IMG/VR virus record: IMGVR_UViG_2579778666_000022
Length of the DNA stretch: 27,848 nucleotides
DNA from: a virus
Taxonomy: Duplodnaviria > Heunggongvirae > Uroviricota > Caudoviricetes
Strand: one strand, 5' to 3'
Position 1 is the first letter of the stretch. Every line of letters starts with the position of its first letter. Positions 1 to 3,000 of the stretch are shown here, one piece after another. Made by a program: the position numbers.

Positions 1-3000
1 ATGAAGGCTGAAATCAGCCGTAGAAGTCTGATGAAAACCTCCGCACTTGGCAGTCTTGCGCTGGCAAGCAGTGCTTTCACTCTGCCATTTTCCCAAATGG
101 TCCGGGCGGCAGAGGCTCCGGTAGAAGAGAAAGCGGTCTGGAGTTCCTGCACCGTTAACTGCGGGAGCCGCTGTCTGTTACGTTTGCATGTGAAAGATGA
201 CACCGTGTACTGGGTGGAGTCTGATACGACAGGTGACGACGTCTACGGTAATCATCAGGTTCGAGCGTGTTTACGCGGGCGCTCTATCCGCCGACGGATG
301 AATCATCCTGATAGGTTGAAATATCCCATGAAGCGCGTCGGCAAGCGCGGTGAAGGTAAATTTGAACGGATAAGTTGGGACGAAGCCCTGGATACCATCA
401 GTGATAATCTTCGGCGGATCCTGAAAGATTACGGCAATGAGGCTGTACATGTCCTGTACGGAACAGGCGTAGATGGCGGAAACATCACCAACTCAAACGT
501 CCCGTACCGTCTGATGAACTCTTGCGGTGGTTTTCTCAGTCGCTATGGCAGCTACAGTACCGCACAGATCAGTGCCGCAATGAGTTATATGTTCGGTGCC
601 AATGATGGCAACAGCCCGGATGATATCGCCAATACGAAACTGGTCGTTATGTTCGGAAATAACCCGGCAGAAACGCGGATGAGCGGCGGTGGTGTCACTT
701 ACTACGTCGAGCAAGCCCGCGAACGTTCAAACGCACGCATGATCGTCATCGATCCACGTTATAACGACACTGCTGCCGGGCGTGAAGATGAATGGCTGCC
801 CATTCGCCCTGGCACCGATGGCGCACTGGCCTGTGCGATTGCCTGGGTACTGATTACTGAAAACATGGTCGATCAGCCATTTCTCGACAAATATTGTGTT
901 GGTTACGATGAAAAAACGCTGCCCGCCAACGCACCACGTAACGCGCATTATAAAGCCTATATTCTGGGCGAAGGGCCTGACGGCATAGCTAAAACGCCGG
1001 AATGGGCAGCAAAAATCACCAGCATCCCGGCAGAAAAAATTATCCAGTTGGCACGAGAGATCGGTTCAGCAAAACCTGCTTATATTTGTCAGGGTTGGGG
1101 GCCACAACGACATTCCAACGGCGAGCAAACATCCCGCGCTATTGCCATGCTTTCCGTTCTCACCGGCAACGTCGGCATAAACGGCGGCAACTCAGGCGTA
1201 CGCGAAGGTAGCTGGGATCTGGGGGTAGAATGGTTCCCGATGCTCGAGAATCCTGTTAAAACGCAGATTTCCGTCTTTACATGGACAGATGCCATCGACC
1301 ATGGTACGGAAATGACCGCGACCCGTGATGGTGTTCGTGGAAAAGAAAAACTGGATGTCCCCATCAAGTTTTTATGGTGCTACGCCAGTAACACATTGAT
1401 CAATCAACATGGCGACATCAATCACACCCATGAGGTGCTTCAGGATGACAGCAAGTGCGAGATGATTGTTGGCATTGACCACTTCATGACGGCCTCGGCT
1501 AAGTATTGCGATATCCTGTTGCCCGACCTGATGCCAACAGAGCAAGAAGACCTTATCTCTCATGAATCTGCAGGGAATATGGGCTATGTGATCCTCGCCC
1601 AACCCGCAACCTCAGCAAAATTTGAACGCAAACCCATCTACTGGATGCTGAGTGAAGTCGCCAAACGCTTAGGACCAGACGTTTATCAAACCTTTACTGA
1701 AGGTCGCAGTCAGCATGAATGGATCAAATATCTCCATGCGAAAACGAAGGAACGTAACCCTGAGATGCCCGACTACGAGGAGATGAAAACGACCGGGATC
1801 TTTAAGAAAAAATGCCCGGAAGAACACTACGTCGCTTTCCGCGCATTCCGTGAAGATCCACAGGCAAACCCGTTGAAAACACCTTCGGGGAAAATCGAAA
1901 TTTATTCTGAACGACTGGCGAAGATTGCAGATACCTGGGAATTGAAAAAAGATGAAATTATTCATCCCCTTCCTGCGTATACCCCAGGTTTTGATGGCTG
2001 GGACGATCCCCTGCGGAAAACCTATCCACTGCAGTTAACGGGCTTCCATTACAAAGCGCGTACCCACTCCAGCTACGGCAATATTGATGTGTTACAGCAG
2101 GCCTGCCCACAAGAGGTGTGGATCAACCCCATTGATGCTCAGGCACGCGGTATCCGTCATGGCGATACCGTGCGGGTATTTAACAATAATGGAGAAATGC
2201 TGATTGCCGCAAAAGTGACTCCGCGTATTCTGCCTGGCGTTACCGCCATCGGGCAAGGTGCGTGGCTTAAAGCGGATATGTTTGGTGACCGGGTCGATCA
2301 CGGCGGCAGTATCAATATTCTGACCTCTCACCGCCCTTCACCGCTGGCAAAGGGAAACCCGTCGCACAGCAATCTTGTCCAGATCGAAAAGGTTTAAGGA
2401 GTAGCCCATGACCACACAATATGGATTTTTTATCGATTCCAGCCGCTGTACTGGCTGTAAAACCTGCGAACTGGCGTGCAAAGATTTTAAAGTTGGTTAC
2501 GTATCGTTTAAAATCAATTAGATAGCCCGTCATTTCTGCGCTCACACGTCCCAACATTGAAAAACATGCAAAGCTTTGTAAGCCGATGCAAAGCTTTGTG
2601 TGTCTCACTTTTGTCCCAATACCAATCCGAATCCACCCTTTGTCATCATTGAGAAATGGCAAGGAAGAAAAGGATGTTACTGCACGATTTGACAAATCCG
2701 CCAGAGCTATCGCATACTGATCGCACTGAACAAATAAGCGGTCTCCGCACCCGATAGCTTTGCGGCTTTTTTATGCCTGCAATTTGGCATAGTTACATCC
2801 GTACAAAGGTCGGGTGGAGAGGCGTAATACAACACCCGCAAGGGGAATATGCCCAGAGCTTCTTATTTGGCTCAGTTGACACCCGACCGCCAGCTACTAA
2901 CTGGCGGTTATAAACTAAACAAATAAGGAGGTCATCATGACCAGTCAACTCATCCCCGTATTCAACGGTTCTATCTCAAACCAAGCAGCCCTTCTATGCA

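Follow-up and report, generated by a model that had tools for sequence, protein, structure and literature searches.

The paired palindromic boxes near one end of a lambdoid prophage are, on balance, best explained as part of the attachment-site (att) arm of a P22-family integration/excision module, and not as a transcriptional operator of the antirepressor (ant) genes. The boxes were analysed within IMG/VR virus record IMGVR_UViG_2579778666_000022, the whole 27,848-nucleotide stretch of which is referred to here as the window. That they are an element of an att-arm recombination module rather than an ant operator is very likely. Within the arm, the boxes are probably better read as an accessory element (for Xis binding and bending and/or a hairpin) between arm-type repeats, and they are probably not Int arm-type sites themselves; it is the flanking GTCCCA repeats that resemble such sites. 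The boxes are an ordinary, already characterised kind of element, belonging with the lambdoid recombination modules that use a heterobivalent tyrosine integrase. The initial annotation had reported two identical copies of ATGCAAAGCTTTGT, exact in both coordinates and sequence (Table 1), and had offered either repressor operators or recombination-directionality/integrase-arm sites as their explanation; the latter is supported as to kind, the site in question being the int-distal arm of a P22-family att.

Table 1. Features of the prophage junction and the adjoining att arm, in window coordinates
Feature	Position	Strand	Remarks
ynfG 5' fragment, cut by prophage insertion	2409..2492	+	RefSeq "partial 4Fe-4S binding protein" directly after ynfF
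Common core / crossover TTTAAAG	2486..2492	.	att site; junction corresponds to attR in lambda terms
Phage-derived att arm module (int-distal "P arm")	2493..2688	+	100% identical in ynfG-integrating POCJ13 and 75/02 Stx
IHF-consensus-like site AATCAATTAGATA	2512..2524	+	between core and first arm repeat; one mismatch to WATCAANNNNTTR
GTCCCAA, candidate Int arm-type site, proximal "P3"	2548..2554	+	heptamer again at 2613-2619 and at int end
Hairpin, 17-bp stem / 6-nt loop, terminator-like	2564..2603	+	formed by the two boxes; int-sense orientation
Box 1 ATGCAAAGCTTTGT	2566..2579	+	phased unit 1, 5' arm of hairpin; ATGCAAAGCCTTGC in P22
Middle unit TTGTAAGCC / TTGTAAGCCG	2576..2585	+	phased unit 2; stem top and loop
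Box 2 ATGCAAAGCTTTGT	2586..2599	+	phased unit 3, 3' arm of hairpin
Tandem GTCTCA (2602-2607) and GTCCCAA (2613-2619), 11 bp apart	2602..2619	+	candidate distal Int arm-type sites "P2" and "P1"

The window covers one end of a 62-kb prophage inserted in E. coli ynfG, the 3' part of which comes after the integrase at the far prophage end, outside the window, where Xis is also encoded. The heptamer TTTAAAG is the only sequence common to the window junction (gatTTTAAAGttggtt), the int-side junction (caacTTTAAAGatcttgg) and an intact attP (caacTTTAAAGttggtt), the last of these being found on a viral contig (L120) and also where the 75/02 Stx record begins. A distance of 74-107 bp separates the boxes from the crossover, on its phage side, and because the integrase and Xis are at the far prophage end, the arm that holds the boxes is the int-distal one. 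The integrase is a 387-aa Phage_integrase protein (a tyrosine integrase) with ~71% identity to P22 Int, and Xis is a 123-aa HTH_17 protein with ~72% identity to P22 Xis. Additionally, the prophage encodes a CII-family protein, and antA genes are located downstream of the boxes.

The two copies of ATGCAAAGCTTTGT start 20 bp apart, and each includes a perfect 10-bp palindrome, CAAAGCTTTG (2569-2578 and 2589-2598). The pair is the sole exact direct repeat of at least 14 nt with copies within 60 bp of each other in the 27.8-kb window, and P22 and many other phages retain it with unchanged spacing; on this basis, the box pair exceeds chance. The bare 10-mer is not enriched, with 3 matches at one mismatch or fewer versus 1.35 expected in the window, and the third of these, at 26388, is at chance level. 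A search for the palindrome elsewhere, for example near an immunity region, had been proposed as a check, and it returned no further copy in the 62-kb prophage of a closely related strain, cI/cro immunity region included; apart from one chance match, no box copy with two or fewer mismatches was found elsewhere in that prophage or in the window. Conservation in related prophages, likewise proposed as a check, held for the boxes and their spacing (P22 and others) but not for the palindrome, which is imperfect in P22 (where box 1 is CAAAGCCTTG, differing at two bases), is not conserved across 15 spacer types and is lost in most relatives. Since palindromes repeated in direct orientation are inverted repeats as well, the boxes are at the same time the two arms of a 17-bp hairpin, and the middle unit turns the pair into a 10-bp-phased array. 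The middle unit, the hairpin and the flanking GTCCCAA/GTCTCA repeats had been overlooked previously.

Positions 2507-2624 of the window are 84.7% identical to the P22 attP arm over 118 bp, with both boxes at the same spacing, and the same arm is present in SfII, SfV, epsilon34 and the DLP12 relic, in which the copy sits between envY and ompT. Repeats of the GTCCCA(A) type are found three times on the int-distal arm and twice at the int end, where the GTCCCAA heptamer occurs in tandem at the int 3' end in the same 11-bp arrangement as in the window (GTCCCAAatttGTCCCA). The offsets of these repeats (-153, -142, +12, +66 and +77) are invariant in three att sites with different cores, and at the base level G67, T68, C69 and C71 as well as G78, T79, C80 and C82 are invariant in 32 diverse relatives. 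In HK542, which has a differing Int N-terminus, GGCACAA repeats occupy the equivalent places, and the repeats on both arms therefore co-vary with the integrase type. The flanking GTCCCA repeats would be the arm-type sites bound by Int. Hybrid attP sites, with GGCACAA on one arm and GTCCCA on the other, also exist (L049 and L087). For the IHF-consensus-like site, only the position hints at a role; the window contains no excess of such matches, with 20 versus 25 expected.

The boxes occupy a spacer of fixed length (48 bp), which their phased array fills exactly, from the proximal to the distal GTCCCA-type repeats, and none of the 61 unique or 15 divergent spacer variants has an indel between these repeats. 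Conservation across the 15 spacer types is limited to TGnAAAG/A-tract units at 10-bp phase, and in the ungapped family alignment a TG.aAA unit stands in the register of the middle unit in all of the types. The array in the window reads aTGcAAAGc / tTGtAAGcc / aTGcAAAGc / tTGtGTGtc, with the boxes as units 1 and 3. The accessory spacer of P22-type att arms therefore keeps its spacing and 10-bp phasing, not its sequence, and one spacer subtype doubles as a hairpin that is also found behind unrelated integrase genes.

This hairpin folds as RNA at -22.7 kcal/mol (z -5.1), and 0 of 200 shuffled sequences folded as well. A permissive scan for terminator-like structures recovered it with 17 pairs and the tail CTCACTTTTG, the T-run of which begins 5 nt past the stem; with the T-run at that distance, the hairpin is not a canonical intrinsic terminator. 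In some copies in the IntS context, the stem is extended up to the T-run. In the intact attP (L120), ~170 nt separate the int stop codon from the hairpin downstream of it, and the GenBank records of phage L, SfII and epsilon34 label it a putative terminator. No Rfam family matched the hairpin, the sole match being a spurious mir-19 below threshold. In the 19 hairpin-bearing variants, 92% of stem positions are pairable, double compensatory changes occur at three positions and the asymmetry of G-U versus A-C is modest; in L104 and L050, double compensatory changes keep box 1 and box 2 paired where the direct repeat has been lost. It is this hairpin-bearing subset that is informative as to structure, whereas the family-wide count (68% of cells pair) is not, since slid controls reach similar covariation scores. 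No significant hairpin is formed by 7 of the 15 spacer types, which counts against a role for the hairpin, as do the family-wide pairing, the distance of the T-run from the stem and the modest G-U versus A-C asymmetry. The spacers of L086 and L098 lack the hairpin, and a related one lies just beyond the distal repeat in both; the proposal that every hairpin-less spacer type has another terminator beyond the arm holds for these two and was rejected as a general statement. Outside P22-type arms, the hairpin recurs behind unrelated IntS/HK620-type integrases, 10-33 nt past their stop codons, where the adjacent arm-like motifs decay, and in HK542 it is located 37 nt beyond the GGCACAA arm sites of that phage. 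The IntS-type and HK542 copies are always in the int sense, with the left edge of homology at the stem base.

In the excised phage, the arrangement runs from xis-int through two tandem GTCCCA repeats, the core TTTAAAG, the IHF-like site, GTCCCAA and the boxes to GTCTCA-N5-GTCCCAA. Integration into ynfG splits this layout at the core and thereby leaves the int-distal arm (attR in lambda terms) in the window. The 10-bp-phased array would serve as the platform of the arm for accessory proteins and bending: the P22-like Xis could bind the array head-to-tail on one helix face and bend the arm, which would allow Int on the neighbouring GTCYCA sites to contact the core for excision. Because the array units are also self-complementary, the same 40 bp specifies the 17-bp hairpin in int-sense RNA, where it probably acts distal to int in termination or RNA stability. 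An intact attP is required to join the hairpin to int, and in the lysogen the hairpin faces read-through from ynfEFG'. The proteins assigned here to the boxes and the arm are candidates, termination is putative and the location assigned to the P22 Xis footprint with respect to the boxes (ATGCAAAGCCTTGCAAGCCGATGCAAAGCTTTGT) is presumptive. Taken separately, a functional int-sense hairpin has about an even chance of being correct, and an Xis/bend platform falls slightly short of that. It is rather unlikely that both hold, that is, that a single 40-bp sequence is under two constraints, as a phased protein/bend array in an intasome arm and as the inverted repeat of an int-sense hairpin.

Sites of recombination directionality factors are direct repeats one helical turn apart (PMC7498355), and the spacer contains direct repeats at about that distance, the TG.AAAG/A-tract units being present without indels in the 15 spacer types. 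P22 Xis is described, by way of a secondary citation in the same source (PMC7498355), as binding cooperatively, bending att DNA and spreading onto sites that overlap Int sites. The TGCAAAG element is also present in phages with an unrelated integrase, which counts against the Xis reading. Near-identical Xis HTH regions are paired with very different spacers in L042 and L086, a mismatch that also counts against Xis, with the pairings themselves made unreliable by hybrid attP sites. The covariation of Xis and spacer was compared over few intact xis-int-attP loci, the pairings being blurred by L049 and L087, and an Xis-based locus search returned only near-identical prophage ends without the other arm.

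The reading that the initial annotation had placed first, in which the boxes are adjacent operators bound by a cooperative, dimeric, Arc/Mnt-like repressor controlling the antirepressor genes, draws on the perfect palindrome in each box, the separation of two helical turns and the position upstream of the antA genes; it is now barely credible. The ant-upstream DNA (2689-2936) is carried at 99% identity by 933W, VT2-Sakai and dozens of other Stx phages that do not have the boxes, and it is the only part shared with 933W-type phages having other integrases, so the boxes follow the integrase module rather than ant. In P22, SfII, epsilon34 and the DLP12 relic, in turn, the boxes lie beside gtrA or other genes, with no ant there. 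With ant modules lacking boxes (933W-type) and boxes lacking ant (P22, SfII and epsilon34), an Arc/Mnt operator of ant was rejected as a candidate. The ynfG-integrating relatives have 100% identical arms and diverge solely within the ant-upstream module, and the module downstream of the boxes varies between phages (ant, gtr or tail fibre). The imperfect palindrome in P22, its loss in most relatives and the lack of a second copy in the 62-kb prophage of the related strain also argue against operators, as do the small ORFs near the boxes, none of which matched a Pfam family or was recognised as an RHH repressor gene. Additionally, the ant start codon lies ~340 bp from the boxes, across a module boundary, and 2689-2718 and 2808-2909 are better candidates for ant cis-elements. 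A related half-site that had been noted nearby, AGCTTTGC, is indeed present (2756-2763), but it belongs to the other mosaic module (2689-2936), and ~0.85 occurrences of such an 8-mer are expected in the window by chance according to hand arithmetic; the weak hairpin and T-run noted at 2746-2772 likewise fall in a different module, and the fold is not significant (z -1.1).

Among the remaining alternatives, the boxes could solely form the int-sense RNA hairpin, as an intrinsic terminator or a retroregulatory/stability element of the lambda tI/sib kind downstream of int, with no recombination protein reading them and with the phased A-tracts as a separate intrinsic bend. The strong and significant stem, the compensatory changes in L104 and L050, the retention of the unit in the int sense directly after unrelated IntS-type int stops and beyond the HK542 arm sites, the related hairpins just past the distal repeat in L086 and L098 and the terminator labels given by the annotators of phage L, SfII and epsilon34 are all consistent with this explanation. 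We nevertheless consider it unlikely, as the U-tract is not adjacent to the stem, several of the seven hairpin-less spacer types have no hairpin nearby and copies outside P22-type arms could be recombination relics; a hairpin alone also leaves unexplained why each arm is a palindrome and why the 10-bp TG.AAAG register is common to hairpin-less types. An inert legacy, that is, a functionless piece of an ancestral arm conserved by common descent and recombination at shared sequence, is improbable: the complete identity of the arm among ynfG-integrating relatives (which precludes a within-family test), the relic copies such as that of DLP12 and the shuffled arms of hybrid attP sites would fit it, but the spacing is invariant over 15 divergent spacer types, the stem has undergone compensatory changes and the hairpin is retained where neighbouring arm-like motifs decay. 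The TGC-N7 periodicity could also represent a TTGC-N6-TTGC box for a CII/C1 activator at a lysogeny-establishment promoter directed towards the downstream genes, given that SfII/DLP12-type spacers contain a perfect TTGCAAGCCATTGC and that the prophage encodes a CII-family protein. The perfect form is limited to the SfII/epsilon34 subtype, however; both half-sites in the window are degenerate (TTGTaagccgATGC, TTGT-N6-ATGC), the promoter scan found no -10-like hexamer at the right distance, hairpin-less spacer types are without any TTGC and the downstream module differs between phages, which makes an activator site highly improbable.

Combined, these results correct the annotation of the locus, in that the palindromes beside these antirepressor genes are part of a P22-family integration/excision site and not an immunity-type operator. 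Stx-converting phages, POCJ13 and 75/02 among them, insert at the same ynfG site, and the base-level att map (core, candidate arm-type sites and accessory spacer) is useful for calling prophage boundaries and predicting excision competence. If the dual constraint is real, it would explain why each box is a palindrome. The att arm would then contain, within itself, a terminator or a retroregulator of the sib type: only an intact attP would attach this hairpin to int, and in the lysogen it would shield the prophage from transcription running in from ynfEFG'. Unrelated integrases of the IntS type would in that case have acquired the hairpin as a portable int terminator behind their genes.

The resemblance of the window to the P22 immI operators, through which Arc and Mnt control ant, is limited to palindromic boxes and a nearby antirepressor-family gene; the window differs in lacking co-segregation with ant and a Pfam-recognisable regulator ORF, and in belonging to a different mosaic module. 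For phage epsilon34, TTGCN6TTGC "CII sites upstream of gtrA" have been proposed (PMC2629481) within the same homologous sequence block, of the DLP12/epsilon34 subtype, whereas the window matches TTGC-N6-TTGC at neither half-site and has no gtrA downstream. The lambda tI/sib element is likewise a hairpin in int-sense RNA, across att from int and attached to int only in the non-integrated genome. It differs in being located beyond P1, outside the arm, whereas the hairpin in the window lies between candidate arm-type sites (and outside them in HK542), with a U-tract that is not adjacent to the stem and a putative role in termination or RNase III processing.

In lambda, the Xis sites X1, X1.5 and X2 are positioned in the P arm of attP and attR. 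Similar to the array in the window, they are direct repeats phased at about one helical turn on the int-distal arm, beside an Int arm-type site (PMC7498355), and lie roughly 70-110 bp from the core. Unlike that array, the lambda sites are not self-complementary and form no hairpin, and the two share no sequence similarity; the window also has an extra candidate arm-type site between the array and the core, and Xis binding to the array is putative.

The attP of P22 follows the same layout, in which a GTCCCA repeat is succeeded by a pair of ATGCAAAGC-type boxes spaced by 20 bp and then by a tandem GTCCCG/GTCCCAA, all at the same distances, together with the Int and Xis whose identities to the prophage proteins are given above. 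Its int-distal arm has reportedly been mapped by Smith-Mungo, Chan and Landy in 1994 and by Mattis, Gumport and Gardner in 2008. In the curated P22 record (BK000583), the annotation of this region is confined to the attP core and the gtr promoter. P22 differs in its core and target, the 3' end of the thrW tRNA as opposed to TTTAAAG in ynfG, and in its box 1, which is off at two bases where both boxes of the window are identical, perfect palindromes; downstream, P22 has gtrABC and the window has the ant module.

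The boxes described in the initial annotation are real: ATGCAAAGCTTTGT occurs twice in the window, both times with the perfect palindrome CAAAGCTTTG inside it, and the pair is the sole exact direct repeat of at least 14 nt with copies no more than 60 bp apart in the 27.8-kb window. On its own, the 10-mer shows no enrichment elsewhere in the window (one 1-mismatch match vs. 1.35 expected). Overlooked at that stage were a degenerate middle unit, TTGTAAGCC, between the boxes, the GTCCCAA/GTCTCA repeats that flank them, and their nature as the two arms of a hairpin, because repeating a palindrome directly also yields an inverted repeat.

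The window opens with E. coli ynfF and 84 nt of 5' ynfG, followed by the prophage. Strain G6/7, identical (100%) to window 2300-3300 around the boxes, harbors a 62-kb lambdoid, 933W-like short-tailed prophage with an excisionase and a 387-aa tyrosine integrase at its far end, adjoining the remainder of ynfG. Comparing both junctions with the intact attP of a viral contig (L120), and with the start of the 75/02 Stx record, defined a 7-bp common core; therefore, the window carries the int-distal arm (attR in lambda terms), with the boxes 74-107 bp inside it. A perfect 9-bp inverted repeat, one arm in host DNA and the other in phage DNA, brackets the crossover region and may represent core-type Int sites or merely the TTTAAA-rich core. 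Accessory genes (4297-15279) adjoin the arm. At the far prophage end (L003 1313-1681), RefSeq labels xis an incomplete pseudogene (66 nt); its 123-aa ORF, which overlaps int, is intact, with 100% identity across at least 12 viral contigs; the label is therefore probably an annotation artefact.

Features of the attachment arm and neighboring genes (window coordinates)
Feature	Position	Strand	Detail
9-bp inverted repeat	2483-2491, 2507-2515		GATTTTAAA / TTTAAAATC
Common core	2486-2492		TTTAAAG
Proximal repeat	2548-2554		GTCCCAA
Hairpin	2564-2603	int-sense	17-bp stem, 6-nt loop; box 1 paired with box 2
Boxes 1 and 2	2566-2579, 2586-2599		ATGCAAAGCTTTGT
Distal repeats	2602-2607, 2613-2619		GTCTCA, GTCCCAA
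Sigma70-like promoter	2689-2718	+	TTGACA-18-CATACT, 10/12 matches
Rfam sRNA-Xcc1 match (RF02221)	2808-2896	+	full-length; 69.1 bits vs. gathering score 53, E 1.8e-12
Terminal 3' hairpin of the match	2885-2909		ACCGCCAG..CTGGCGGT; -15.9 kcal/mol, z -3.9
First antA/AntB gene	2937-3221		incomplete per RefSeq
Second gene	3309-4100		AntA and P22_AR_C domains
PAPS-reductase-like and IbrB-like gene pair	4297-6152	+	closely related RefSeq record
Panacea-domain gene	6241-6765	-	closely related RefSeq record
LPD38 'polyvalent' protein, 2787 aa	6916-15279	-	closely related RefSeq record

Phage genomes were searched with window 2493-2936. In 933W, VT2-Sakai, Min27 and dozens more Stx phages with other integrases, only 2689-2936, which lies upstream of ant, is in common (99-100%), and the box-bearing stretch has a 100% identical counterpart only in POCJ13 and 75/02 Stx, phages that integrate in ynfG. 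The attP arm of Salmonella phage P22 shares 84.7% identity with window 2507-2624 and carries the counterpart ATGCAAAGCCTTGC-N6-ATGCAAAGCTTTGT, spacing unchanged, between int/attP and gtrA; SfII, SfV, SfI and epsilon34 carry the same arm. Within the ynfG family, arm 2486-2720 is invariant and every substitution falls in the ant-upstream module. By these comparisons it is the integrase module, not ant, that the boxes accompany, and the earlier reading of them as Arc/Mnt-type operators of ant is therefore rejected. The other early proposal, recombination sites near att, held as to kind, the boxes lying in an att arm homologous to that of P22. The search first proposed, for the palindrome elsewhere in the prophage (for example near an immunity region), gave no further box copy in the 62-kb prophage, cI/cro region included, and small ORFs near the boxes matched no Pfam family. 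The boxes are very probably an accessory element in the att arm of an integration module of the P22 family. Most E. coli genomes, roughly 3000 complete ones, keep in their DLP12 region a decayed relic of the arm (about 76% identity), flanked by envY and ompT (e.g., L004 3001-3111, K-12 BW25113), with boxes diverged as direct repeats and pairing still possible.

The spacer separating the proximal repeat from the distal tandem pair is occupied by the boxes. The other arm carries a tandem pair of GTCCCA(A), spaced by 11 bp, inside the int 3' end, and at three att sites with differing cores the five repeats lie at identical offsets (-153, -142, +12, +66, +77). These repeats are likely Int arm-type sites, because HK542, with a divergent Int N-terminus, has GGCACAA at equivalent positions. 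Hybrid attP sites in viral contigs L049 and L087, with GGCACAA repeats and HK542-type Int/Xis on the int side of the core and an SfII/P22-type arm with GTCCCA repeats opposite, are what recombination between different prophages with a common thrW core would be expected to yield; arms and integrases can therefore be mismatched. For unbiased spacer sampling, an 18-mer anchor outside the boxes, CTGCGCTCACACGTCCCA, retrieved 125 loci (61 unique sequences, 15 divergent spacer types). Zero indels were found between the repeats in this set. Spacer sequence is highly variable, and conservation is limited to A-tracts and TG.AAAG units phased at 10 bp (consensus AAAA.ATG.AAAG...TG.aAA....T..AAAg...TG..tGTCcCA; window units aTGcAAAGc, tTGtAAGcc, aTGcAAAGc and tTGtGTGtc). 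Conservation among relatives, a check named at the outset, does not hold for the palindrome: CAAAGCTTTG is a peculiarity of the window's spacer subtype.

Two non-exclusive functions fit the boxes. Fixed length, helical phasing and position beside arm-type sites match the expectation for a recombination directionality factor (RDF) or bending platform, and the prophage Xis is intact (123 aa, HTH_17) and 72% identical to P22 Xis, a protein that binds cooperatively and bends att DNA and that, when highly concentrated, spreads to sites overlapping Int sites (PMC7498355). A phased Xis/bend platform between candidate Int arm-type sites is accordingly a tentative proposal, falling slightly short of even likelihood, in which Xis would bind the units. 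A CII box, as proposed for the epsilon34 homologue (PMC2629481), is a minor alternative, given degenerate half-sites and no promoter found there in the window.

The second function, a putative int-sense hairpin acting distal to int as a terminator or a stability element, has about even chances. The int-sense RNA folds at -22.7 kcal/mol (z -5.1; 0/200 shuffles as stable), and a consensus scan found it terminator-like, with tail CTCACTTTTG. The stem is kept in all TGCAAAG-like spacer subtypes (z -3 to -7) and absent from seven other types. Of the stem positions in 19 variants that bear the hairpin, 92% can pair, and three positions carry double compensatory changes: C-G to U-A; C-G to G-C (L104) or A-U (L050); and U-A to C-G by way of C·A. 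The boxes of L104 and L050 are no longer direct repeats yet still complementary. One subtype, retrieved independently in 58 contexts, lies 10-33 nt past the stop codon of IntS/HK620/CPS-53-type integrases, unrelated to P22 Int, in 28 of them (e.g., L210 2200-2250, L211 2201-2246), always int-sense; there the stem is retained, neighboring GTCYCA-like motifs have decayed, and the homology's left edge is the stem base. HK542 has the hairpin 37 nt beyond its own arm sites, L086 and L098 have a related one just past the distal repeat and none in the spacer, and annotations of phage L, SfII and epsilon34 place a putative terminator here. However, the T-run lies 5 nt from the stem, family-wide pairing reaches only 68% of cells with slid controls similar, and several hairpin-less spacer types have no replacement hairpin. 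Only after excision of the genome, as with lambda tI/sib, would the hairpin be attached to int; in the lysogen it faces ynfEFG' read-through. A further minor explanation takes the boxes as an inert relic. Both constraints acting together would make each arm equal its own reverse complement and so explain the perfect palindromes; such a dual role is rated as rather unlikely.

Candidate cis-elements for the ant genes sit in the other module. The promoter, directed at the ant genes, lies exactly at the start of the module common to 933W-type phages and makes a stronger candidate than the boxes for control of ant. The sRNA-Xcc1 match is in the same module, immediately upstream of the antA start codon, and its terminal hairpin is CAACCAG..CTGGTTG in 75/02 Stx and E. 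coli 2014C-3307, a compensatory change. The first antA/AntB gene is truncated vs. many relatives, whose matches fall in two pieces because of about 430 bp extra in other genomes.

Among known systems, the closest element is the P22 attP arm, to which the window arm is related by direct homology, and the arm is a ynfG-targeting variant of this already characterized att site. By analogy, the box array resembles the lambda X1-X1.5-X2 array and the box hairpin resembles lambda tI/sib.
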